A DNA stretch of 48,816 bases from Candidatus Woesearchaeota archaeon (GTDB lineage Archaea > Nanobdellota > Nanobdellia > SCGC-AAA011-G17 > JACPNG01): positions 1 to 48,816 of the forward strand of contig JACQNI010000025.1 in NCBI GenBank assembly GCA_016203135.1. Direction: 5' to 3'. The position numbers were made by a program, and so were the translations under genes. Below, piece by piece: positions 9,755 to 47,327 of this stretch; the stretch's first letter is position 1; each line of letters opens with the position of its first letter. The notes beneath the pieces were generated by a model that was not told the origin of the DNA, did not search any database, and saw nothing but the letters and a program-made list of their open reading frames with translations.

Positions 9755-10858
9755 ATGAAACATAAATGGAATAGGGATTGCAAGTCATTTCCTGGGAATT
9801 ATGCTTGTGATATTATGAAAGCTGAAGGTTACATAGATTGTGATAAATGTAAGTTTTACGAGCCATACTCCAAGAAAATTCTAATTATAAAACTCGGGGC
9901 TTCTGGAGATGTGATAAGGGCAACAACTCTGCTTTCTGGATTGAGAGAAAAATATAGAAGCAGTATAATAGTAAAGTGGCTTGTCACTGAATACAATTCA
10001 GAGCTCCTTAAAGGAAATGAATTCGTTGATAAAATATTGGTTTATAATCAAGATTCTATGTTGAGGCTTAATAATGAAGAATTTGATATACTGATAAATT
10101 TAGATGCAGATGAGCCAAGCACTGCTATAGCAAATCTTGTAAAAGCAAAGAAAAAATACGGATTTTACATGGATAAATACGGTCATCCTGCTGCTTTTAA
10201 TAAAGAAGCGGAATATTTTTTAGATATGCAGTTTTCTGATGTTCTCAAGAAGAAAAATAAGAAAAGCTCCCAAGAACTTTTTTTTGATATTGCCTGTTTG
10301 CCTTATAAAAAGCAGAAATATATGCTTAAGGTTTCAGATGAATCTAAAAAATATGCTGATGAATTTAAAAAGAGGCATAAACTTGGGAGAAATGTTGTCG
10401 GATTAAATATGGCTAGTGGTAAGAGGTGGCCCTCGAAAAGACCTTCTACTAGAATTATAGTAGATCTAGCTAAGAAGTTGCAAAAGAAAGGTTATAATCT
10501 ATTGATTCTGGGCGGTCCAGAGGAAAAAGATTTCTATGAGTTTTTAAAAAATAAATTGCATGAAAATGGAGTAAAATTTACTATTAATAATTTAAATAAT
10601 TCAATTAAGGAGTTTATTGGGGTCGTTAGCATTTGTGATAAGGTTATCTCGACAGACAGTTTTGCAATGCATCTAGCAATTGCTTTAAACAAGGAGACAA
10701 CTGCTTTATTTTATTGCACTCCTTCTTGGGAGATAGAAAACTATGGTAAAGTTAATAAGATTACAAGTAAATTACTGGAAAAGTATTTCTATACAGATGA
10801 ATATATTGAAGAGCTTGTAAATAGTATATCTGCTGATGAAATGCTGAAAGAGTTTTAA
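9755..10858 (+). CDS. GT9 family glycosyltransferase (heptosyltransferase-like) with N-terminal Cys cluster
   Basis: 367 aa. TDSFAMHLAIAL (GT9 nucleotide-sugar site) and an N-terminal C..C..CDKC. Confidence 0.7.
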   Translation: MKHKWNRDCKSFPGNYACDIMKAEGYIDCDKCKFYEPYSKKILIIKLGASGDVIRATTLLSGLREKYRSSIIVKWLVTEYNSELLKGNEFVDKILVYNQDSMLRLNNEEFDILINLDADEPSTAIANLVKAKKKYGFYMDKYGHPAAFNKEAEYFLDMQFSDVLKKKNKKSSQELFFDIACLPYKKQKYMLKVSDESKKYADEFKKRHKLGRNVVGLNMASGKRWPSKRPSTRIIVDLAKKLQKKGYNLLILGGPEEKDFYEFLKNKLHENGVKFTINNLNNSIKEFIGVVSICDKVISTDSFAMHLAIALNKETTALFYCTPSWEIENYGKVNKITSKLLEKYFYTDEYIEELVNSISADEMLKEF

Positions 10859-10859
10859 T

Positions 10860-12395
10860 ATGGAATCCAAGATTGAAGACAAATACCTGCTTTTTCCCAT
10901 TATCCTTTTAGCAGGGATTTTGTTATATAGATTGATTAAGTTTTCCCAGATATTGCACTATTTTCCCTTTAATATTGGAGACCTAGCTCAAAGAATGGCC
11001 CAATTCTTTTTATTTGCAAAATATGGTTTCTTAAACCTTGTTCCTACTTGGTATAATGGTTTTATTTCATTAAAGTTTTATCCGCCATTATGGTATTTTT
11101 TTACTTATCCCTTTTATGTATCAACTAATAATCTAAATCAAGCTATTCTCTTATCCTTGATATTTATGCTTTTAATAGCCCTTTTATTTATGCTTTATTT
11201 TGGAAAGCTAGTAAGATTATCTTTTGCTAAAAGAATAGCCTTGTTCTTTTTATTTTTCTCATCGCCTTTACTAATAGATCAAATATTTAACATAGGTAAA
11301 TTGCCTGAATTATTTGGTTGGATGTTGTTCATCCCCCTATTTTTCTTATTTGTTTACTATAAAGACAATAAATTAGATTTGAAATTTTTTATCTGGTTTA
11401 TTATATTATATTCAGGAATATTATTGAGTCATCCATTTTTATGGCCGGGAGTTTCATTTTTCTTATTATCTCTGCTATTTGTTAAAATCTTTAAAGAAAA
11501 AATTTATATTATATTTTCAATAATTTTATCCTTGTTTGCTGTTTCTTTTTGGCTAATTCCATTTCTTCTTGGTTTGCAAGGAGAAGCTGGATGTAATTTT
11601 ATTTGCCTTGATATAAGAGATTATATAGAAAAGCCTGAATTTTCTCCTCATCATATAAATCCATTGAGGGAATTGTTATTCCCAGGAAGCATCTTTTCTT
11701 TTAGCACCTTTATATCTATCGGATTTTTAATAATGTTTTTTGTCTATTGGAAATCTGTTGATAAAAGCAAAAAAGAATTGCTTTTTTACTCCCCATTTAT
11801 ATTCCTAAGCATTGCAATATTGACTAGGATAATAATCTTCCTGCCTTTTCTGAACAAGCCACCGATAAACCCCTATAATACATTGCTTCTCTTCCCCTTG
11901 CTATTTTTGTTCCTGAAAACAAGATATCCAATTTACTATAAAAAAATTCCAAGCATTTTGGCTATATTGATCCCAATTATCTTTCTGTTAAGCAATTTTT
12001 ATTTAATAGATGATAAATCTCTAAGCTATTCAGCAATAGACAAGGAATTTATGGAAATATCCAAAGATTTAGATAGTAGATATCTGCCAATAATGGATTT
12101 TACTATAAAAAATCAATATATTAGGTCTCCTTCGATATCTTATATAACAATTAAAAAAGATTTGTCAACCCCTTATGGGGCGTTTAATACAGATTTAAGT
12201 AAAGAATTGTTTAACAAGTTAAATTCAATAACAAATGATTTTAAAAACAATGATTGTAAAAATGCAGTTTCCAAGATAAATGAGCTTGAAGTAGATCAAC
12301 TGCTAAGCTATAAAGAGCATTGTAGCTTTATAGAAAAATGTAAGTTAAAGGCAAAAACCATAACTGAAAACTATTGCATTTACGAAGTAAATTAA
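10860..12395 (+). CDS. polytopic membrane protein with C-terminal soluble domain (putative GT-C-like), paralogue of 12392..13876
   Basis: 511 aa. Shares YFP..D..AQ..F.A.FGF...VP.WYNGF, ELFGW and STP(Y/F)G blocks with the neighbouring gene. Confidence 0.6.
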   Translation: MESKIEDKYLLFPIILLAGILLYRLIKFSQILHYFPFNIGDLAQRMAQFFLFAKYGFLNLVPTWYNGFISLKFYPPLWYFFTYPFYVSTNNLNQAILLSLIFMLLIALLFMLYFGKLVRLSFAKRIALFFLFFSSPLLIDQIFNIGKLPELFGWMLFIPLFFLFVYYKDNKLDLKFFIWFIILYSGILLSHPFLWPGVSFFLLSLLFVKIFKEKIYIIFSIILSLFAVSFWLIPFLLGLQGEAGCNFICLDIRDYIEKPEFSPHHINPLRELLFPGSIFSFSTFISIGFLIMFFVYWKSVDKSKKELLFYSPFIFLSIAILTRIIIFLPFLNKPPINPYNTLLLFPLLFLFLKTRYPIYYKKIPSILAILIPIIFLLSNFYLIDDKSLSYSAIDKEFMEISKDLDSRYLPIMDFTIKNQYIRSPSISYITIKKDLSTPYGAFNTDLSKELFNKLNSITNDFKNNDCKNAVSKINELEVDQLLSYKEHCSFIEKCKLKAKTITENYCIYEVN

Positions 12396-21946: not shown

Positions 21947-22422
21947 ACACAAACAGAAGAGAATTCTTGCTTGAGCTTATGATCCTTAAAGTCCTGCAAG
22001 ATGAAACGCCTTTAAAAACATTGGCAGAACAAGTAGCTCAGAAAACAGAAAAAATAACTACAGAAGGCAATGGCATAATAAAACTTTACAGGCATTTCAC
22101 AACAATTTCCTTAAGAATACATACAAAAGATTTTATTGCTGCTGTTAACAAAGAAGATAATTATCTTGCAATAGATTACATTCCAAAGAACTCTGAAGAA
22201 ATAAATAATCTTGTAGAAGGTGCTGGCAGGTTCATTGATTTAGGTATTGATGCTAAGTTTAAATATCAACATGAGCTGATTCCTAGTTATGCATTTCATG
22301 ATGGAAGAAAAATAAAACCCGCTACAGATCTTGCCTTATTTCTTGACTTGTATAAAAATGCATTAAATGCAATAGATAGTTTTTACACAAAAAGAAATCT
22401 AAGGGTATACGACAAAGCTTAA
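21943..22422 (+). CDS. hypothetical protein, ATGA-coupled to deoxyhypusine synthase
   Basis: 159 aa with no recognisable motif. Its 3' end overlaps the convergent giant gene by 24 nt. Confidence 0.5.
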   Translation: MNTNRREFLLELMILKVLQDETPLKTLAEQVAQKTEKITTEGNGIIKLYRHFTTISLRIHTKDFIAAVNKEDNYLAIDYIPKNSEEINNLVEGAGRFIDLGIDAKFKYQHELIPSYAFHDGRKIKPATDLALFLDLYKNALNAIDSFYTKRNLRVYDKA

Positions 22423-25400
22423 TTGATTGTCAAAAACATCCTTGCATATGATATTTAACTTGTCAGCTAAAGGAGCGCTATGAATTCCTTGAGACTTTGT
22501 CATTAAAGTTCCTGTTCCAAAATTAAACTGTTTATTGCTGAATTCGCAGTTAACTTCTTCATCTAATTCAATATTCAAGCTGCTTGCTGTAGAATATATC
22601 CTTAATATTTCTGGCCTGCTTAAGTCAACAGCAACATCAAAGCTGGTCTTTCCCTTAGCTTCATTGCCAGCTATGTCTTGACATGTAACAAAGTAATTAT
22701 ATCTTGCAGTTCCAAGTATCAGGCTTTGCTCATGCACCTTGCTGTTTGTGTTGATAAACTCTACTTTATTAAAAAATTCATCGCTTTCTTTCTCGCTGAA
22801 AGCGCATATTGCTTTTCCATTTTCTGCACCATTAGAAGTTACAACTTTTAGTGTTATATTTCCATTGAATATTGTTCCTGTAGGTTCAACTTTATCAATA
22901 TTCAATTTGCTTGTTTTTGTTAAGCTATAAGCAAAGCTCTGCTGCATAACATTCCTGTCTTTCTCCTCTTTTCCAGGCTGGTCTTTGCATTTAAAGAAGA
23001 ATTTATTTTCTCCTGTTGTTAAGCTACCTAACTTTGTTTTGCATTCAAACAATCCATAATGCAAAGCGTTTGTTATAAATCCGCTTGTTTGGCATTCAAA
23101 ATCATTTTTCATATTCCCATAATCTAAATCACTTTTATCCCATTTACATTCACTTGGTTCATTAACAAATATATCTACAGAAGTCTCATTGATATCACTT
23201 CTAATAAATGCCTTGTTTAAAGGACTTACCTCTTCAATTTTTGGTGGTGTTAAATCTGGTCCTGGTTTTACATTAAACCTTATGAAGTAATCAGCTTCGT
23301 TCTGATTTCCAGCAGCATCTTGGCATTTTATATATAATGTATGCTCTCCCTGGTTTGTCAATGCCAATGCCTCTTTGCTTGTTAGTTCAGCAGGCAAGTT
23401 CAATTCAATCTGGTGTTCATTAATGTATAAGTTTGTTCCAAAGAATGCAGTCATGTCATCATATTTCTTTCCTAGATCTTTATCAAACCTGCATTGTGCT
23501 GGCTCATCTGTTAATATTCCTAAAGTTACAGGAGTAAACGGCTCTATTTTTTCAGTTAATCTATACCCATTTGGAGTTTCATCTATGTTTCCCTTGATCA
23601 CATTTCTAAACGGAGTTATTTTCGGTGATCTAACATCATCAATATTTATTGCAACGCATTTTTCTTCTTTCTTTCCCTTATTTATCAAGCCACATTGCTG
23701 CCCTAAGCTTTTGCATCTATATTCAGAACAAGGTTTTTTAGGATCTTGATTGCATAATTCACATTTACTTCCACCTTTTGGAGGCTGCCATATCCCACAT
23801 CCAATCTGATAATTTTTTTCTTTTGTTTGTGCAAGTACAACATCAACTATAGAATAAACAGTATAAGCCCATAAAGCAATATTTACTGCTGCAAATATTC
23901 TTCCTAAATTACTTAATATAAAAGGTTTTCCTGCTACAGTTGTTGTTCCAGTTATTGCCCCTTTAACACCAAATCCAGATAAAAAAGGAACCCCTAAAAC
24001 AGATTTAGTTAATACTGCCCCACCACTAGATTTTAAAAGTACTCCTAATCCAATCAATGCAGTCAAAGCAATAGGCCCTCCTGGAGTAAAGTAATTCCAG
24101 CTGCTTGGTATATTCTTATTTACATCAGTAGAAGTTAACTTGCTAAAGTCTCCAAGATCTCTTTTTTGTAGTTTATATCCATCAAAATACAATCCATCTT
24201 TTTCCCTTTCAGAAGAAGCTGTATTTGTATATCCATCCAAAGAAGCATCTCCAGCTATGTTAAAGTAAGCCCCGCAGTCTCCCAAAGACTTACAATAATT
24301 ATTTCCAGCTATTACCCACTCCTGTGTTGTGCAATGCTCATTACCGTCAGGAGTAATTTTCCAAGAATCCACTCCAAATATTCTAGAAGCCCCTCCCCTT
24401 CTCCATTTAACATTGCATTCTAAACTTCCAGCTTCACAAACAGAATCCTTTGCTTTTGGAGAAAAGCTGCTTAATGAAACATCAGCTGCCTTTCCCCTTG
24501 TTGTTGATTCAATAAATTTAATACCCTCATTCCAAAATTTTATTCCTGGAGGTACATCAGGAGTGCAAACCCCCCCATAAGTTCTTAATATTTCTTGAGG
24601 CAATGCAACAGCGCTTATTCCCGAAGGATTCCAGAAACAATCCCTTGCAGCCCTGTCTTCACAACATTTCCTTGCACAGCAAGCAGTCTGTGCTTCATTC
24701 ACTTCTGTATCTTTAAAAGTATCTTCCAAGCCATCACATTCTCCTCCACATAACTCAGCTTCATTGCATTCAGTACAACTCTCCCACCTGTTAAATCTAC
24801 AAGCTGCTTCATTAAATCCTTGTTGTATTCCTGCTTCTTGTAATGAATTATCATTTATCTTGTCTTCAAAGCATAATTCTTCCCTAAAATCCTTGCAAGG
24901 CTCTACAATTTCTTCTCCATTTATACAAACAGTTCTAAAGTGTCTGCTTCCAACTAAGTCTCTTCCTTGTCCAACAGCCCCATCATATAAGCACCAAGAT
25001 TCTCCTGATTTTTTAGCACTTCCAGCACTAGGACTTGGAGCGCTTTTAGTTATATCTATACAAGCTGTTGACTTACAAATAAAATTTCCAACTATTGGCT
25101 TGACAGAAGTTGCATTCCCACAAATTGTTCCAGCAGTATAATCACAGTTCCCGCATCTTGGATCATTTGCATTAGCCTTGCAAATTTCTTGTTGTTGCTG
25201 ATCTGATAAAATAAATCCATTGTTGTAAGAAATTTCCTTGTTTGCATTGTAAATATTTTCTTTGTTTCCACAGCTGTCAAACCAATACACATCTTCTTCA
25301 GAGCATTTTGTTGTTTGTTGCTTTGCACATTCAGTTCCTAATGCTGAATTGCTGCATAAAAATCCCTTATGGAATCCAGTCTTAATTCCCTTAACATCTT

Positions 25401-25962
25401 TCTCTTGAACATTACAAAGCTGCTGGGTTGTTAAAACACATCTGCCATCTTCCTTTACACATGCCCCTAAATCTTCAGAAAAGCTCTTTTGCAAACATAA
25501 AGCCTCGCTTTGAATACTTTCATCAAAAACCATGTTTACATTTGGAAATTTTGCAGTTTCTAATTTGCATCTTGCTTGTGTTGTGAAAAATGCCTCATCC
25601 CCGATAATGCAGCATCCTTCTCTTGCTAATGGTATGTTACAATCTGCTGAATCAAAAAATTCTCCCTTCTTTGCAATGCAGTTTGCTTTTCCTACCTTCT
25701 TAAAGCATTTCCCTTCTGTTTCTATAAAACAGCTTCCAACCTTGCAAAAACTTGATTGTGCACAAGTAGCTGAAATCTCTCTCGAATTTTCTGCACATTT
25801 ATCTTTGCTTGTATATTGGCAAAATTCTCCATCAGTGGTTTTTTCACAGCATGTTTCTTGTTTTTGTGCAGAAACATTTTTTATATTCAATAAAGATATA
25901 GTAAAAACAGAGCTGATTAAGATTAATGCTAAAAATAAAGCCTTTATTTTTTTATCAATCAT
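22399..25962 (-). CDS. giant cysteine-rich surface/membrane protein with four C-terminal Ig-like repeats
   Basis: 1187 aa. The order is a signal peptide, a roughly 600-aa ectodomain with 47 Cys (manual count), a pair of TM helices (GGPIALTALIGLGVLL, IFAAVNIALWAYTVYSIVDVVLA), a Cys knot (CELCNQDPKKPCSEYRCKSLGQQC), then four repeats. Each repeat carries a ..EPxxC(R/K)(F/W).. and ..C(Q/K)DxxGN.. pattern. Confidence 0.8.
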   Translation of the reverse strand: MIDKKIKALFLALILISSVFTISLLNIKNVSAQKQETCCEKTTDGEFCQYTSKDKCAENSREISATCAQSSFCKVGSCFIETEGKCFKKVGKANCIAKKGEFFDSADCNIPLAREGCCIIGDEAFFTTQARCKLETAKFPNVNMVFDESIQSEALCLQKSFSEDLGACVKEDGRCVLTTQQLCNVQEKDVKGIKTGFHKGFLCSNSALGTECAKQQTTKCSEEDVYWFDSCGNKENIYNANKEISYNNGFILSDQQQQEICKANANDPRCGNCDYTAGTICGNATSVKPIVGNFICKSTACIDITKSAPSPSAGSAKKSGESWCLYDGAVGQGRDLVGSRHFRTVCINGEEIVEPCKDFREELCFEDKINDNSLQEAGIQQGFNEAACRFNRWESCTECNEAELCGGECDGLEDTFKDTEVNEAQTACCARKCCEDRAARDCFWNPSGISAVALPQEILRTYGGVCTPDVPPGIKFWNEGIKFIESTTRGKAADVSLSSFSPKAKDSVCEAGSLECNVKWRRGGASRIFGVDSWKITPDGNEHCTTQEWVIAGNNYCKSLGDCGAYFNIAGDASLDGYTNTASSEREKDGLYFDGYKLQKRDLGDFSKLTSTDVNKNIPSSWNYFTPGGPIALTALIGLGVLLKSSGGAVLTKSVLGVPFLSGFGVKGAITGTTTVAGKPFILSNLGRIFAAVNIALWAYTVYSIVDVVLAQTKEKNYQIGCGIWQPPKGGSKCELCNQDPKKPCSEYRCKSLGQQCGLINKGKKEEKCVAINIDDVRSPKITPFRNVIKGNIDETPNGYRLTEKIEPFTPVTLGILTDEPAQCRFDKDLGKKYDDMTAFFGTNLYINEHQIELNLPAELTSKEALALTNQGEHTLYIKCQDAAGNQNEADYFIRFNVKPGPDLTPPKIEEVSPLNKAFIRSDINETSVDIFVNEPSECKWDKSDLDYGNMKNDFECQTSGFITNALHYGLFECKTKLGSLTTGENKFFFKCKDQPGKEEKDRNVMQQSFAYSLTKTSKLNIDKVEPTGTIFNGNITLKVVTSNGAENGKAICAFSEKESDEFFNKVEFINTNSKVHEQSLILGTARYNYFVTCQDIAGNEAKGKTSFDVAVDLSRPEILRIYSTASSLNIELDEEVNCEFSNKQFNFGTGTLMTKSQGIHSAPLADKLNIICKDVFDNQLSFVVYP

Positions 25963-26738
25963 GCCGGCTCTCCCTCAACAGCAAATTGAAACACATAGCT
26001 ATTATCATCCCTTTTTACTTGATATACTTTATGTGGATATAATTTATTTAAGTATATCTTAAATTCTCCTTTTCTAAGCTGCATATAGCTTAATGTATCA
26101 AAAAATCCAAATGTTGCTTCATCATCTATTATATCTTGGCTTATTTCATATAACTCCCCCAAAGGATAATTAAAACTTTCTGTGAATTTATTCCTAGAAA
26201 CCATGTTATCTTTGCTTTTAAGAGTAACAGGATAATTTATATCTAGGATAACAGCCCTAGATTCAATTTTTGTTTTAACATCTAAAGTTCCAGTGGTTAT
26301 TTCATAGGGTTTAAATCTCTGAAAACTTGTAAAATCTAAACAGCCATTCAAGGATTGTTTTACATTCTCGCTGATTTGTGATTCCATCTCTTCTATTGTT
26401 AATAATCTGTTCATGCATGCTTCGTCATCAGGAATATTATAGCAAAGAAAACTTACTTCTGAATCTTTATATGATATGAAACTATAATCAACAGGTTCTA
26501 AATATCCCCCTTGTAATCCGATCTTTTCAATGATTTCATTTGCATTCTGCTCAGAGTCTCGATTCAAGCAGTCAATTATATTGCTTTCAATTTCATTCAA
26601 TTCCAGATTTAAATTTTCGGTAGTTGTTGGCAAAAAAATAGTTTTTCTTGCAACGAAAAAAAGACTTAAAATAACTACAATTACAATTCCAATAATTACA
26701 AATGCAGTAATCTGCCCTCTTTTTCCAAAAATAAACAT
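25959..26738 (-). CDS. type IV pilin-like protein (class III signal peptide), ATGA-coupled to the giant Cys-rich gene
   Basis: 259 aa. The N-terminus reads MFIFGKRGQITAFVIIGIVIVVILSLFF, and the body contains 5 Cys. Confidence 0.55.
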   Translation of the reverse strand: MFIFGKRGQITAFVIIGIVIVVILSLFFVARKTIFLPTTTENLNLELNEIESNIIDCLNRDSEQNANEIIEKIGLQGGYLEPVDYSFISYKDSEVSFLCYNIPDDEACMNRLLTIEEMESQISENVKQSLNGCLDFTSFQRFKPYEITTGTLDVKTKIESRAVILDINYPVTLKSKDNMVSRNKFTESFNYPLGELYEISQDIIDDEATFGFFDTLSYMQLRKGEFKIYLNKLYPHKVYQVKRDDNSYVFQFAVEGEPA

Positions 26739-35211: not shown

Positions 35212-36618
35212 TTATTCTACCCCATATATTTCATAACCATTTTTATTGTATATCTTTTTAAAGGTTGTGCTAAATTTAAGCAAGAATAATATTCCTTCAT
35301 CTTCCTGATTCCATAGTTTTCCCCTCATTTCAGGGTCTATATAGATATAGTCTATTCCATATTTCTTGGTTAATGTTATTGCTTCCTTCAAGTCCTTAGT
35401 ATACATCAATTTGTAAAAATCTTCATTTCTTTCCCTTAAACCTGGCGCAAAGAAGAACTCACCATCCATAAAATTCTTTCTTTCAGATAAAGCGCTTATA
35501 AAATGTCCATTTGAATGATAAGACAAGACAATGTCATCCTTGTTGCTGTTTTCTCTTAAAAAATTCATTGCATCTATTGTGCCTTGATTCGGATTTTTAT
35601 CTTTTATCTGATTCATATAAGTAACTGTTGAAAATATTAAGCCTATGGAAATTATAAGTAATGATAATGTTTTTATTGAATCGCTTTCCCATTTCATGCT
35701 TATCAATTTTATTAATCCCAATGAAGCCAGAAATGCTATGATAAAGTTCAAGTATAGCAGTGATTTTGTGTTGAATATAGCAAGTATAGCTAATAAAACT
35801 AAGGACAAGTATATTATAAAATTTTGGTATTTTTTCTCCCATAATCTCGAAAGTCCAAAAAATGATAAGAACACTGCAAATATGCTTATTCCATAAATCC
35901 CGCCAAAATCAGATATAAACTCTTGGATAAAAGATAGATTATTGAATTCGATGCTTGGAATTCCATTCAATATAAACGGCCAGATTATCATGAAAAGCAA
36001 TATTGCTAAAATAAAGTATGATCTCTTTAGCCCATATCTAAATCCAATAATTGCAGTAAAAAGTAATGTGATTATTCCATGAAATATTCCAAAAAAAGGC
36101 GCAATTAATATAAGCAGATATGAAAAAAAGCTTTTTTTATATAAAAGCAGTAAAAAAGCACATAATAATAAAAAAACAGGAACAATAAAATCATTTGAAA
36201 CAGTTCCTGCATATATAAAAGCCGGCGACAATGCTAATATTATACATGAAAATATCCTAGCCCTTAAGCTCAAGCCAGTTTTTTTTAACAAATAATAAAA
36301 AACAACCAAGGAAGCTAAAGCAAATATCATCGGAAGTATTTTGGATGCATTTTCTAAAGTAATTCCAAATGACTTGGAAAATATATTAAGCATGAGATGC
36401 CATGCATTGAATATGTGATTTCTTCCAGAAAAGCTTAATTGATCATAAGTCATAAAAGGATTTTCTGCAATCCTTAGATGATAATAAGCTTCATCTCCTA
36501 TTAATAATTCCCCCCTCTGCAGATTAACAATTAACAATAAAGTAGCAGAAAGAATAACAACAAATAAAACACTGATTAAATCAGCACCTGCGTTTATATA
36601 TTTTTTCTCCATTTCCAT
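35212..36618 (-). CDS. STT3/AglB-like GT-C membrane protein lacking the WWDYG motif
   Basis: 468 aa. First loop GDEAYYHLR. The C-terminal block DDIVLSYHSNGHFISALSERKNFMDGEF aligns with AglB TAVFAHWWDYGYLVQYGANRATLSDGGN. Confidence 0.6.
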   Translation of the reverse strand: MEMEKKYINAGADLISVLFVVILSATLLLIVNLQRGELLIGDEAYYHLRIAENPFMTYDQLSFSGRNHIFNAWHLMLNIFSKSFGITLENASKILPMIFALASLVVFYYLLKKTGLSLRARIFSCIILALSPAFIYAGTVSNDFIVPVFLLLCAFLLLLYKKSFFSYLLILIAPFFGIFHGIITLLFTAIIGFRYGLKRSYFILAILLFMIIWPFILNGIPSIEFNNLSFIQEFISDFGGIYGISIFAVFLSFFGLSRLWEKKYQNFIIYLSLVLLAILAIFNTKSLLYLNFIIAFLASLGLIKLISMKWESDSIKTLSLLIISIGLIFSTVTYMNQIKDKNPNQGTIDAMNFLRENSNKDDIVLSYHSNGHFISALSERKNFMDGEFFFAPGLRERNEDFYKLMYTKDLKEAITLTKKYGIDYIYIDPEMRGKLWNQEDEGILFLLKFSTTFKKIYNKNGYEIYGVE

Positions 36619-38056
36619 TATAACTCTCTCTAAAACAAGTCTTGTCTTCTAAATTGCTAAAGCCTTCCCTATTATAAATCTTTTTTGTTCTGTCGCTTAT
36701 ATAAACATAATCAGAATTATATTTGCTCATTATATTTACAGATTTTGCTATAGATGTAGTTGTAAAAAATTCTTCTACATCATTATATTTTTCATTTATG
36801 TTCTTTACCAGTAAAAAGTTTTCATCCATTACATTTTTTCTATTTGATACTGTAGTTACAAAGTTGCCCTCATCAACAGAGGAAAATATTACAGCATCTT
36901 GTTCAGTATTTTCTTTTATCCATTTCAATGCATTAAATTCATCATCATTAAATCCATTCTTTATTACATTCTTTGCATTGACATAAGCCGGCAAGACTAA
37001 AGTCAATACAACTATCAAGAACAAAAACATCATGATGTAGTTTTTTATATTTGCCATTTTGGTTATCTCTATGTACTTGAAAAACTTCTCAAATCCAACA
37101 GAGGACAATATTGTTACTGTTATTGCCAAAAACAAAACCCCAATTTCAAAGTTTATAAGTTTAAATGATAAAATAAGCAATATGCTCAAAAGCATGCTTG
37201 AAAACAATACCATTACATTGTTTCTTTGCCTGAATATTCCAAAGTAAACCCCTATCAATGCAAACAATAAAGGCATTATGCCCAAGCCAAGCAATATTTT
37301 TCCAAGATTTATATTTATGAAATACCTATCCAAGATTTTATCAGGTATGTTTTGCCATACAGTATTAAATCCCTGTGTTAAAAACGCATTTCTATATATT
37401 AAAAATTCAATGAACAATGTTACAAAAACAAAAAAGAATATTGCTTCCTTGTTTAGATTTATTATTTTTACATCTTCGCTCTTAGAAATCAAAAGATATA
37501 ATATAAAAGATAATGATAAAATAAAAGCTATAGGATGTACTAAAGGCAGTAAAACAGATAAAATAACAAATAAGTTAAGGTATCTCTTGTTTTCTAGTCT
37601 TATAAACGCAAGCAATGTCAAAAAAGTCAAGGGCAAGGCTAAAGAATAAACACTTATGTTGTTCAATGTGTTTGTTATTAATATAGGAATAAATCCTGCA
37701 ATAAAAGAAGAAAATAATATTGCCTTGTCATCATTTGTTATTGACTTTATTATTAAGTAAACTATTATTACTAATGATGATATTAAAATTTCTGGTACAA
37801 CCTTCAAGGCAATATCTCCAAAAATAAAGACAAACACAGACATGAAATAGTAAAATATTGGTGAAAACAATTGTTCCTTGCCAGAATAGCTCAAATCATC
37901 TTCAAATATTGGCTTGTTATTTTCTAATATATTATCTATCTGCCTCATGTTGTAATATGCATTGTCATCTGCGAAATGAGGCGTTGTAAAGACAAAATAT
38001 AATCTAAAAATTAAAGTCAACAAAAATATTAATATGACTATTTTATTTTTGTTCAT
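36581..38056 (-). CDS. STT3/AglB-like GT-C membrane protein lacking the WWDYG motif
   Basis: About 491 aa from ATG 38056 (the track uses TTG 38089). First loop ADDNAYYNMR. The C-terminal block AVIFSSVDEGNFVTTVSNRKNVMDENF aligns with the AglB WWDYG region. Confidence 0.6.
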   Translation of the reverse strand: MNKNKIVILIFLLTLIFRLYFVFTTPHFADDNAYYNMRQIDNILENNKPIFEDDLSYSGKEQLFSPIFYYFMSVFVFIFGDIALKVVPEILISSLVIIVYLIIKSITNDDKAILFSSFIAGFIPILITNTLNNISVYSLALPLTFLTLLAFIRLENKRYLNLFVILSVLLPLVHPIAFILSLSFILYLLISKSEDVKIINLNKEAIFFFVFVTLFIEFLIYRNAFLTQGFNTVWQNIPDKILDRYFININLGKILLGLGIMPLLFALIGVYFGIFRQRNNVMVLFSSMLLSILLILSFKLINFEIGVLFLAITVTILSSVGFEKFFKYIEITKMANIKNYIMMFLFLIVVLTLVLPAYVNAKNVIKNGFNDDEFNALKWIKENTEQDAVIFSSVDEGNFVTTVSNRKNVMDENFLLVKNINEKYNDVEEFFTTTSIAKSVNIMSKYNSDYVYISDRTKKIYNREGFSNLEDKTCFRESYNGNGEKIYKRRC

Positions 38057-38598: not shown

Positions 38599-40077
38599 CT
38601 AAATAGGATATCTCAACAAAGCAGCCTTGCCCCCAATAGTCTTTAGCTGTTCTCCCTCCCTTGTATTTACGGAAATTATAACGATTTTAGTTCCATAATT
38701 AAGCGCTTTTTCTTCATATTTCTCAATCTCTTTTTCATCCAGGTTTTCAGATAGCAGTAATTTATCAACAGCCCCCATTTCCAAAGCATGATCAACCTTG
38801 TCTCCATAACTAACCATATTTTCATTTTTCCCAAGCAATGTAAAAAATTCATTCAATATTGATTTTTCTTCTGTTATTTCTAAATTAACTAAAGCTTCCT
38901 GGCTTTTGTCAACTAATTCTTGTAATCCAAAATCCCCAGTATATCCCAAATCTTCAATAGCAACAACTTTCCTTTTCAGCTGTTCATTTAAATGACCGCC
39001 TTCTAAAAACTCTTCCTTAGTTGGTCCAGGTCCTCCAACTAAAATTCCCTTTAAATCCTTCATCTCCAAGAAAGCCTTGTTTGCTGCTTCCCCAATTCTC
39101 CTATAAAATTCTTTAGCAGCCCCTTCTCTTAACCTTTCAAATCTGGCTGCTGAGTTATGTACAATTAGACCGTTGGCTATGAAGTTTTTATTTTCTACTT
39201 CTATATCTATCATATTTACATTTTTTTTATTTATTTTTAACGAATCTATTTTAAATATTTTTAAGTCATCATGTAATAAACCATCATTAGTTTTTAATTC
39301 GTTTGCATATTTTGTTTTAGGATTTCCAATAAATACTAAATGATCTTCAGAACATTTTAAAATTTTATTCCCATTTTTAATTACAATTGTCTTATCTTTT
39401 TTAACATCCCATTTTTTCAGAACTCTAGATGGTTGAAATTTTTTTGTTTTAAAATTATAAGACTTAACTAAATCTCCTTCCTTGACATCTTTTAATAAAA
39501 TCTTACTATTATTATATAATGTAATTAAAGTATCTGGCATAACACATTGCCCCCCAGCCTTCGTCTTTCCAGGAACACCAGAGGTCATATGAACAATGCT
39601 TTCAATTCTTGTTCCTTTTAATGTTCCAACATCTCCTTCTCTTCTATCTAAAACAATCAATCCAAAAATCTCTTTTGTCTCTAGCATCTCTATTAAAGGA
39701 TCAAGTAAAAAAGTCTGATCACACCTATACAATCTAAAATTCAAAGGCTCAGGAGGCTCAAGACTCCAGACTTTTATGTCTATTTTGCTTTCATTCTCAG
39801 AAGCATTTCCTGCAAACAAAGCAAGGCCATTTTCAGGAGTTTTTTTGTACAATCTTAAATGCCTTATGCATCTTTCTAAACTGTCTATAACGTTCTTCCT
39901 AGTCCTAGCGTCCTTGATATTTTGTGCTGTTGATTGTTCCTCTGCCAAATGCTGGTTTATTTTGTTTAAATCATAGTCTTTAGGAACAAAAACAGAAACT
40001 AATTCAGTATGCCTTCCTCTTATCTTTTTTAATTCATTGATAAATTTCTTGAGTTTTACTCTATCTTGTAATTTCAT
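38599..40077 (-). CDS. prf1: peptide chain release factor aRF1, interrupted by a mini-intein
   Basis: 492 aa. The aRF1 N-domain and the ...GVPGKTKAGGQ | intein | SAARFERLREGAAKEFY... junction reconstitute the GGQSA.RF motif. The extein is 361 aa. Confidence 0.85.
   Translation of the reverse strand: MKLQDRVKLKKFINELKKIRGRHTELVSVFVPKDYDLNKINQHLAEEQSTAQNIKDARTRKNVIDSLERCIRHLRLYKKTPENGLALFAGNASENESKIDIKVWSLEPPEPLNFRLYRCDQTFLLDPLIEMLETKEIFGLIVLDRREGDVGTLKGTRIESIVHMTSGVPGKTKAGGQCVMPDTLITLYNNSKILLKDVKEGDLVKSYNFKTKKFQPSRVLKKWDVKKDKTIVIKNGNKILKCSEDHLVFIGNPKTKYANELKTNDGLLHDDLKIFKIDSLKINKKNVNMIDIEVENKNFIANGLIVHNSAARFERLREGAAKEFYRRIGEAANKAFLEMKDLKGILVGGPGPTKEEFLEGGHLNEQLKRKVVAIEDLGYTGDFGLQELVDKSQEALVNLEITEEKSILNEFFTLLGKNENMVSYGDKVDHALEMGAVDKLLLSENLDEKEIEKYEEKALNYGTKIVIISVNTREGEQLKTIGGKAALLRYPI
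39154..39546 (-). mobile_element. mini-intein (131 aa, no homing endonuclease domain) within aRF1
   Basis: Begins with Cys (CVMPDTLI, block A). Block B-like SEDH. Ends ...FIANGLIVHN, followed by the +1 Ser of the extein. Codons checked on the sequence: TGT at 39546..39544 and AAC at 39156..39154. Confidence 0.8.
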
Positions 40078-46327: not shown

Positions 46328-47327
46328 ATGGAAAAGCTCCCATTTGAAAGAGAACTAAAAATTTTAACAAGAAAAGAGTCAGAAACAGATCCAAGTTTTG
46401 GTGTAATACCAGAAAAAAGATCTACTGAAGAGCTATTAAATTATGGAGTATTAACAATAAACAAACCACAAGGGCCGACTTCACATCAAGTTGCAGATTA
46501 TGTTAAAAAAATACTTCATATAGACAAAGCTGGTCATGGTGGGACTCTAGATAAATAAGAGAAATCCCAATGTAACCGGTATTTTGCCAGTAGCCCTTGG
46601 AAAAGCGACAAGAATAGCTCAAGCATTGTTAAAATCTGGAAAAGAATATGTTTGTATAATGCATTTACACTCAGATATAGACGAAGAAAAAATAAGAAAA
46701 GCAATGCAGGAATACATTGGCAAGATTCAGCAAATGCCTCCAATAAAAAGCGCTGTTAAAAGACAATTAAGAACCAGAGAAATTTATTACATAGACATTC
46801 TTGAAATAAAAGGAAAAGACGTTTTGTTCAAGATTGGCTGCCAAGCAGGAACTTATATAAGAAAATATTGTCATGATTTTGGAAAAAGACTAAATACAGA
46901 TGCACATATGCAGGAATTAATAAGAACAAAAGCCGGCCCTTTTACAGACAAAGAAATGTATTCCTTGCATGACTTGCAAGATGCTTATGTCTTCTACAAA
47001 GAAGGTGATGATAAAGAACTAAGAAAAATAATAAAGCCAATAGAATTCGCAGTTCAACACTTGCCAAAGATCTGGGTTTTTGATTCTGCTGTCGATAGCC
47101 TATGTCATGGCTCTTCTTTATACTTTGGCGGTATATCAAAATTAAATTCTGACATAGAAAAAGAAGATTTGGTTGCAGTTCTGACCTTAAAAAATGAATT
47201 GGTTGGTCTTGGTTATTCAGAAGCAACTAGCAAAGAACTGCTAGAACAAGAAAAAGGAATTGCTGTAAAAACATCAAAGGTTTTTATGGATATAAACATA
47301 TATCAAAAATTAACAAATAAAATATAA
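46328..47327 (+). CDS. cbf5: pseudouridine synthase Cbf5 (TruB family + PUA), join(46328..46550,46564..47327) after removal of a 13-nt intron
   Basis: Two abutting track ORFs carry KAGHGGTLD... and ...PNVTGILPVALGKATR. Splicing gives GHGGTLDPNVTGILPVALG and a 328-aa protein of normal Cbf5 length with a C-terminal PUA-like region. Confidence 0.85.
46551..46563 (+). other. 13-nt bulge-helix-bulge intron in cbf5 pre-mRNA
   Basis: T-GGGA-CTCT-AG|A-TAAATA-AGAG-AA|A-TCCC-A. Outer helix 46540-44/46565-69. Central 4-bp helix 46545-48/46558-61. 3-nt bulge AAA. The excised segment ATAAATAAGAGAA contains the in-frame TAA. Confidence 0.75.

Follow-up and report, generated by a model that had tools for sequence, protein, structure and literature searches.

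The 48,816-nucleotide contig JACQNI010000025.1 of Candidatus Woesearchaeota archaeon (the entire stretch of DNA analyzed, referred to as the window) encodes the release factor aRF1 in a form that raises an immediate question: why is its peptide-release motif GGQ followed directly by 131 residues that intein-free relatives do not possess, and what becomes of these residues? An initial annotation had proposed an intein at this site. According to our analysis, the insert is very probably a class-1 mini-intein that would splice by standard chemistry; it lies between Gln177 and Ser309, where domain M forms the tip of its GGQ loop.

The open reading frame (ORF) was identified as aRF1 by the NCBIfam model TIGR03676 (aRF1_eRF1; E = 1.6e-119, 399.4 bits versus a cut-off of 234.7), the match being fragmented, with a break at residue 178 and resumption at approximately residues 309 to 315. 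It features the three Pfam domains eRF1_1, eRF1_2, and eRF1_3, with eRF1_2 taken up again at residue 308 and eRF1_3 spanning residues 402 to 492, and it contains the aRF1 motifs QNIKD (NIK(S/D)), YRCDQTF (YxCxxxF), and GGQ, the first two being located in the N-extein. Direct reading of the DNA confirmed the ORF and its coordinates and placed the junctions at single codons. On the N-terminal side, CAA for Gln177 (39547-39549) is followed by TGT for Cys178 (39544-39546); on the C-terminal side, CAT for His307 (39157-39159) and AAC for Asn308 (39154-39156) precede TCA for Ser309 (39151-39153). Across the two junctions the precursor reads GVPGKTKAGGQ/CVMPDTLITL ... NFIANGLIVHN/SAARFERLREG, the segment that starts with Cys and ends with Asn comprising exactly 131 codons, as initially annotated. 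The proposal that excision recreates the GGQSAxRF loop was borne out as well: deletion of residues 178 to 308 yields an aRF1 of 361 residues with a predicted mass of 40.8 kDa (GGQSAARFERLRE; wider context around the junction, VPGKTKAGGQSAARFERLREG), which equals the intein-free relatives P0003 and P0016 in length and shares their GGQS sequence. Both this in silico spliced protein and P0003 align end to end with canonical aRF1/eRF1 proteins (PDB 4af1, 3agk, and 1dt9). For P0003 versus 4af1, the E value is 1.9e-79 and GGQSAhRF stands against GGQSAqRF, a form for which the window gene would require splicing.

The insert alone matched the Pfam family Intein_splicing (PF14890) with E = 6.7e-9 and 36.2 bits (cut-off, 35.8), and it was also matched by TIGR01443, TIGR01445, PF01079, and two NCBI intein-containing "exception" models. 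A comparison with PDB sequences returned 12 chains at E values of up to 10, ten of them inteins or intein-like domains, including the Spl DnaX mini-intein (1.7e-7), NrdJ-1, gp41-1, and Tetrahymena BIL2 (about 1e-7). AlphaFold2 was used to model the insert on the basis of 30 homologous inserts; the resulting all-beta structure has a predicted local distance difference test (pLDDT) value of 97 and a predicted template modeling score of 0.87. A Foldseek search with this model gave 64 PDB matches at E ≤ 0.001, with E values down to 4e-12, and the best 50 of the 64 were all inteins, intein-like domains, or hedgehog autoprocessing domains, with template modeling (TM) scores of 0.7 to 0.92. Partners at TM scores of 0.8 to 0.92 include BIL2, the Ssp and Npu DnaB inteins, gp41-1, NrdJ-1, Mtu RecA, Prp8, and hedgehog autoprocessing domains. 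The assignment of residues 178 to 308 to an intein thus has both profile and structural Hint matches behind it. In a model of the whole precursor (52 homologues), the domains of aRF1 and the Hint domain are all confident, and pLDDT values below 50 are confined to residues 169 to 175 and 310 to 316, which form the arms of the GGQ loop; the intein therefore appears to hang from the tip of the loop.

The features of a class-1 intein are present at the sequence level: a Hint fold, Cys1, Ser and His in block B, Asp in block F, the terminal His-Asn, and Ser at position +1. The SEDH sequence, initially described only as block-B-like, corresponds to block B itself, its Ser66 and His69 being invariant in 115 homologous mini-inteins and also in two further alignments. 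Since Asp114 occupies position F:4, the element does not belong to class 3; both class 3 and class 2 were rejected, as there is no WCT-type Cys in block F and residue 1 is Cys.

The close resemblance to bacterial intein-like (BIL) domains requires comment. A Hint domain of the BIL type, which would only cleave or rearrange, is suggested by the top structural and PDB sequence matches, namely, BIL2 of Tetrahymena BUBL (PDB 6y75 and 6tmm; E about 1e-7, TM score of 0.92, 27% identity) and a Clostridium BIL domain. However, true inteins follow closely behind these matches in those searches, and whereas BIL domains reside outside conserved housekeeping sites and perform no canonical extein ligation, the aRF1 element lies in frame within a conserved motif, its host protein is essential, and it is accompanied by a +1 nucleophile, His-Asn, empty alleles, and endonuclease-bearing relatives. 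Membership in the BIL class was rejected on the basis of the location in the GGQ motif, Ser+1, and the empty-site alleles, and we regard this explanation as exceedingly improbable.

Several points weigh against the assignment as a splicing class-1 mini-intein. The support by hidden Markov models (HMMs) is modest, the mini-intein being highly divergent: PF14890 exceeds its cut-off by only 0.4 bits and is subthreshold on the whole protein, and TIGR01445 reaches 23.2 versus a cut-off of 24.5. In block B, Ser takes the place of the more common Thr, yet this Ser is invariant among the aRF1 mini-inteins. Of the hallmarks named in the initial annotation, Cys1, block B, and the terminal His-Asn stand and are conserved across relatives; Ser+1 is present but carries no weight, because the GGQS motif of the host requires this residue anyway, and it is thus uninformative as an intein hallmark. 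Splicing of the aRF1 precursor is a prediction from sequence. Finally, the finding of a single aRF1 applies to the 48.8-kb window: no other aRF1 or pelota-like ORF is present across the window, as had been claimed, and neither further inteins nor aRF1 paralogues were detected in it by the family HMM, phmmer, and Pfam on the ten largest ORFs. The coordinates of the gene and of the intein elements are compiled in Table 1.

Table 1. Coordinates in the window of the aRF1 gene and of the elements of its predicted intein
Feature	Position	Strand	Description
aRF1 precursor ORF	38599..40077	minus	492 aa plus stop, 55.9 kDa
N-extein	39547..40077	minus	Residues 1-177; domain N and first half of domain M; ends VPGKTKAGGQ
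C-extein	38599..39153	minus	Residues 309-492 plus stop; remainder of domain M and domain C; begins SAARFERLREG
Predicted class-1 mini-intein	39154..39546	minus	Cys178-Asn308 of precursor; 131 aa, 15.1 kDa, 393 bp
Block A region	39508..39546	minus	Intein residues 1-13 (CVMPDTLITLYNN); Cys1 is the N-terminal nucleophile
Block B core	39340..39351	minus	S66-E-D-H69, TxxH equivalent
Empty endonuclease position	39271..39276	minus	Intein residues 91/92 (GLL/HDD); from alignment with larger relatives
Block F	39169..39213	minus	Intein residues 112-126 (MIDIEVENKNFIANG), including Asp114
Block G and C-terminal splice junction	39151..39168	minus	LIVHN/S; His130 and Asn131 of intein; Ser309 is the +1 extein nucleophile

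Comparison with homologues provided the second line of evidence. A search with the precursor returned 120 proteins, 118 of which have an insert at the identical position. Cys1, the terminal His-Asn, and Ser+1 are present in all 119 intein-bearing sequences composed of these and the window copy. The mean identity to the window copy is 41% over the 115 mini-sized inserts and 61% for the exteins. Invariant in the 115 mini-inteins are, besides the two block B residues, Cys1, Asp114, Phe122, Val129, His130, and Asn131, and D68, N121, and A124 are nearly so (97%). The closest relative, P0001, is 95% identical and is followed by the intein-free P0003 (84% extein identity) and P0016 (78%), which comprise 361 residues each and contain GGQSAHRF and GGQSAQRF, respectively. 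Their DNA at the empty site reads GGTGGTCAA/TCAGCC (P0003) and GGAGGACAG/AGTGCA (P0016), at the point where 393 additional bases are present in the window. Close relatives thus lack the segment and do not retain it as a non-intein insertion. A gene for a class-I aminoacyl-tRNA synthetase (aaRS) lies upstream of aRF1 in both empty-site loci, and ScpB follows aRF1 in L001 (P0003) and L003 (P0001), whereas the P0016 contig stops at the aRF1 gene; consequently, the order aaRS-aRF1-ScpB is conserved in P0003, and for P0016 this can be stated for the aaRS side only.

These data also bear on the origin of the interruption at the nucleic acid level. Removal at the RNA level, as a bulge-helix-bulge intron, or an artifact of assembly or annotation might be considered since the cbf5 gene of the same window is split and had been read as containing an intron. 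However, the 393 nucleotides are in frame and free of stops, encode a Hint domain that is modeled with high confidence and subject to purifying selection, and occur in the same architecture in more than 200 independent assemblies; moreover, pairing at the junctions is no better than in shuffled sequence (z = -0.29). The probability of this explanation is negligible.

The ratio of nonsynonymous to synonymous substitution rates (dN/dS) relative to the P0001 gene is 0.018 for the exteins (dS, 0.47) and 0.20 for the intein (dS, 0.36), so that the intein evolves approximately ten times faster at nonsynonymous sites than the exteins. It is nevertheless clearly constrained; this purifying selection fits a need to fold and splice. 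Its base composition differs from that of the exteins: GC content is 21.6% versus about 35%, and GC content at third codon positions is 13.7% versus about 28%, the same contrast being seen in the P0001 gene. This AT-richness is compatible with acquisition from a foreign source or with codon usage being less strongly selected. A dead or nonsplicing Hint domain, either retained in the mature protein or residing in a pseudogenized aRF1 gene with a working copy elsewhere, is very improbable. That aRF1 genes are not all canonical, related archaea having aRF1-like genes without the glutamine of GGQ, speaks for it, but all catalytic residues of the insert are intact and invariant, the exteins are strongly constrained, the gene occupies the conserved aaRS-aRF1-ScpB slot, and, judging from eRF1/aRF1 structures, a 15-kDa domain on the tip of the GGQ loop would be hard to fit into the peptidyl-transferase center. 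The window intein is almost certainly competent for splicing, as far as its sequence and those of its relatives indicate.

Based on the established chemistry of class-1 inteins, the following course of events can be proposed. The 55.9-kDa precursor would be translated as a whole; in this state it should lack activity, as aRF1 has to bring GGQ into the peptidyl-transferase center. Cys178 would attack the carbonyl of Gln177 in an N-S acyl shift, and the N-extein would then be taken over by the hydroxyl of Ser309 in a transesterification. Cyclization of Asn308, assisted by His307, would free the 15.1-kDa intein, and an O-N shift would establish a normal Gln177-Ser309 peptide bond, giving the 40.8-kDa aRF1 with the loop GGQSAARF. 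aRF1 is usually encoded by a single-copy gene in archaea. If this also holds for the genome as a whole here and if splicing takes place, termination would depend on it, and every termination event would rely on autocatalytic protein splicing. Methylation of the GGQ glutamine by Mtq2, which has been described for Haloferax aRF1 (PMC6144793), would be possible only after splicing. Note that the location of an intein at a catalytic residue, which had been emphasized initially, is the usual pattern for inteins and does not introduce a new principle.

The distribution of the element was assessed by scanning GTDB species representatives with a degenerate nucleotide pattern encoding VPGKx[KR][AT]GGQ/C, which matched at least 120 species. 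Among the matches listed, 65 species are labeled Woesearchaeota, 14 Nanoarchaeota, 5 Aenigmatarchaeota, 4 each Pacearchaeota and Iainarchaeum, 3 Nanohaloarchaea, and 1 Micrarchaeota, and 12 are unclassified archaea; Ca. Forterrea (complete genome CP045477.1) and archaeon GW2011_AR20 (complete genome CP010426.1) contribute one match each. Nine further species in this list carry the label "Methanosarcinales" and one the label "Paceibacterota." These nine metagenome-assembled genomes (MAGs) and the single bacterium are probably mislabeled, because their aRF1 exteins cluster with DPANN sequences. Carriers of the GGQ-site intein thus appear to be nearly all DPANN archaea, and the element appears to be common there. 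An unbiased sample was obtained by searching with the intein-free P0003 against representatives of clusters at 50% identity. Among the 121 full-length aRF1 proteins found, 51 have an intein at the GGQ site (39 with GGQ, 12 with GGW, GGF, or GGM), and 70 have none (63 with GGQ, 7 with GGW or GGF). An origin from viruses was considered and rejected: the junction pattern had no match in viral contigs, and two tblastn matches to a viral protein, which is unrelated, were due to chance and rested on the peptide YNFKTKKF.

The inserts at this site differ greatly in size. Of the 102 that could be delimited among the matches listed, all with Cys1 and His-Asn followed by Ser, 42 have about 130 to 145 residues, 11 have 420 to 435, 48 have 480 to 575, and one has 275. 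Most of the listed carriers therefore hold versions of 420 to 575 residues with a LAGLIDADG homing endonuclease. This module belongs to LAGLIDADG_3, and the 480- to 575-residue class adds an Xre-type HTH_3 domain upstream of it (e.g., L011, L050 with two HTH_3 domains, L123, L034, and L004). Both LAGLIDADG motifs have their acidic residues intact in 52 of 60 large copies among these matches, whereas the 275-residue insert (L067) contains only a degenerate half endonuclease. With 131 residues and no LAGLIDADG match in Pfam, the window intein is too small for a homing endonuclease, in agreement with the initial annotation. In an alignment, the endonuclease blocks of P0089, P0097, P0098, and P0100, 300 residues in size, open after YLL. 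On sequence grounds, the window intein appears to belong to an active homing family as a member devoid of the endonuclease, and the empty, full, degenerate, and mini alleles at one site would represent the full series of a homing cycle. The family would home to GGQ-coding DNA across DPANN archaea. The ability to splice would be maintained because a nonsplicing copy or an imprecise deletion destroys an essential factor, and no benefit to the host would be necessary to explain the persistence of the intein.

On trees that are admittedly crude, being built by neighbor joining and the unweighted pair group method with arithmetic mean, the mini and large states change 3 times when splicing domains are used and 19 times when exteins are used, versus about 30 times with shuffled labels. 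The small number of changes on the splicing-domain tree suggests that the mini-inteins form a lineage of their own that is patchily distributed over hosts. This patchiness fits horizontal spread or repeated replacement; the trees are too crude for proof. Such a coherent lineage, as opposed to fresh deletions, and the persistence of endonuclease-less copies in many lineages under purifying selection could also be taken to indicate a domesticated posttranslational switch, in which conditional splicing, e.g., redox-sensitive splicing via Cys1, would gate the supply of active release factor. Documented precedents for conditional splicing exist among other archaeal inteins, such as that of RadA, which is covered in the reference list of PMC4760082. 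However, purifying selection on splicing is expected in any case, because failure is lethal, and the close relatives P0003 and P0016 manage without the intein. Cys65, the sole other Cys, is found in only 43% of the mini-inteins, so that there is no conserved disulfide partner for Cys1. No stress-related context was seen, and nothing in the data favors a regulatory role, which we consider quite improbable.

In terms of mechanism, the element is ordinary. With class-1 mini-inteins (Spl DnaX, the Ssp and Npu DnaB mini-inteins, gp41-1, NrdJ-1, and the splicing domain of Mtu RecA), it shares the Hint fold (TM scores of 0.8 to 0.86), the residues of blocks A, B, F, and G, the lack of an endonuclease, and a size of about 125 to 150 residues; it differs from them in host and site and by Ser instead of Thr in block B, sequence identity being 21 to 28%. 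At 124 to 131 residues, the aRF1 mini-inteins are at the small end for contiguous inteins, and such an intein with a Ser+1 junction may suit protein engineering. With the archaeal LAGLIDADG homing inteins (PolB, MCM/CDC21, RFC, RadA, aIF2, and VMA), it has in common that it interrupts the most conserved functional motif of a protein that is essential for information processing. Its relatives at the aRF1 site share the LAGLIDADG_3 module with these inteins, whereas the window copy lacks an endonuclease and the relatives of 480 to 575 residues additionally contain HTH_3.

What we did not find described is the host protein and the site. A literature search, which was incomplete so that a prior description is possible, revealed no published aRF1 or eRF1 intein. 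In the 2016 survey of archaeal inteins, release factors go unmentioned and aRF1 is absent from the top 15 hosts, of which aIF2 and RtcB are the ones related to translation; according to the survey, inteins are few in core translation components (PMC4760082). A paper on Bodo saltans virus mentions eRF1 as well as inteins, the latter being located in polymerases. Likewise, there was no "intein-containing aRF1" exception model of NCBIfam among the profile matches of the ORF. The peptide-release motif of aRF1 would thus join the host sites of inteins, and a full homing cycle at one site over hundreds of DPANN genomes would offer a natural system to study intein dynamics in tiny genomes. Intein-bearing aRF1 proteins (P0044, P0070, P0011, P0012, and others) are named "hypothetical protein" or "polymorphic toxin-type HINT domain-containing protein" in databases, a misannotation that could make aRF1 seem absent in surveys of DPANN genomes.

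A second intein site was observed in aRF1, between R and C within the stop-codon-recognition motif YxCxxxF (YLYR/C...FLVHN/CDDHF; P0230, P0255, and P0252). The inserts at this site have about 500 residues, and P0252, with 1187 residues in total, has inteins at both the YxCxxxF and the GGQ site.

A separate observation concerns the GGQ motif itself, which is termed universally conserved (PMC6144793 and PMC7708063). Among the 121 cluster representatives, GGW, GGF, or GGM replaces GGQ in 19 cases, 12 with and 7 without an intein. P0122, with the sequence GGF/C...HN/SQQRY and the codon TTT for Phe, occurs in two independent assemblies (L124, 1443-3818; L125, 311-2686), and its neighborhood, aaRS-aRF1-ScpB-...-GT2, is the same as that of the window gene. 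When the intein-free GGW protein P0135 (L126, 8001-9215) was used as the query, 115 of 120 matches had GGW. These proteins, which may be orthologues or paralogues, are called "peptide chain release factor aRF-1" where they are named, originate mostly from Aenigmatarchaeota, and are encoded in housekeeping contexts. Further homologues with GG[W/F/M] are P0341 (L130, 8245-9471), P0339 (L131, 10001-11212), and P0275-P0392. In a neighbor-joining tree, one large GG[W/F/M] clade was obtained, the sister of which is formed by GGQ-plus-intein sequences from Aenigmatarchaeota; outside this clade, the Gln is replaced in at least seven isolated cases. No GGW-type aRF1 was found in the literature, in a search that was incomplete. 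The GGQ-less aRF1 homologues are a more surprising lead than the intein. A broader scenario, which at present seems unlikely, is that the GGQ-coding DNA of aRF1 in DPANN archaea has been a long-running battleground of homing inteins that reshaped the factor: release would have become dependent on splicing, Trp, Phe, or Met would have replaced the glutamine, either as an escape from the endonuclease target or by relaxed constraint, and some archaea would terminate with a GGQ-less factor.

The nearest extein neighbors of the window aRF1 are from MAGs labeled Woesearchaeota, and the other genes of the window are archaeal (AglB/STT3, S-layer, ScpB, S19e, L31e, and Cbf5). For the ORFs of 1191, 515, and 478 residues (22402-25974, minus strand; 10848-12392, plus strand; and 35215-36648, minus strand), no Pfam match was obtained at E ≤ 1e-5. 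The 478-residue ORF and an ORF of 502 residues, which are located downstream of ScpB, have syntenic homologues in L124 and L125. The cbf5 gene is split into an ORF of 76 residues with a DKCLD domain (46328-46555, plus strand) and an ORF of 247 residues (46584-47324, plus strand), which matches the TruB_N profile from position 23 onward, followed by TruB_C and PUA. The two halves are 28 nucleotides apart, and the split is repeated in the relative L002 (1158-1382 and 396-1139), which fits the small intron suggested in the initial annotation.

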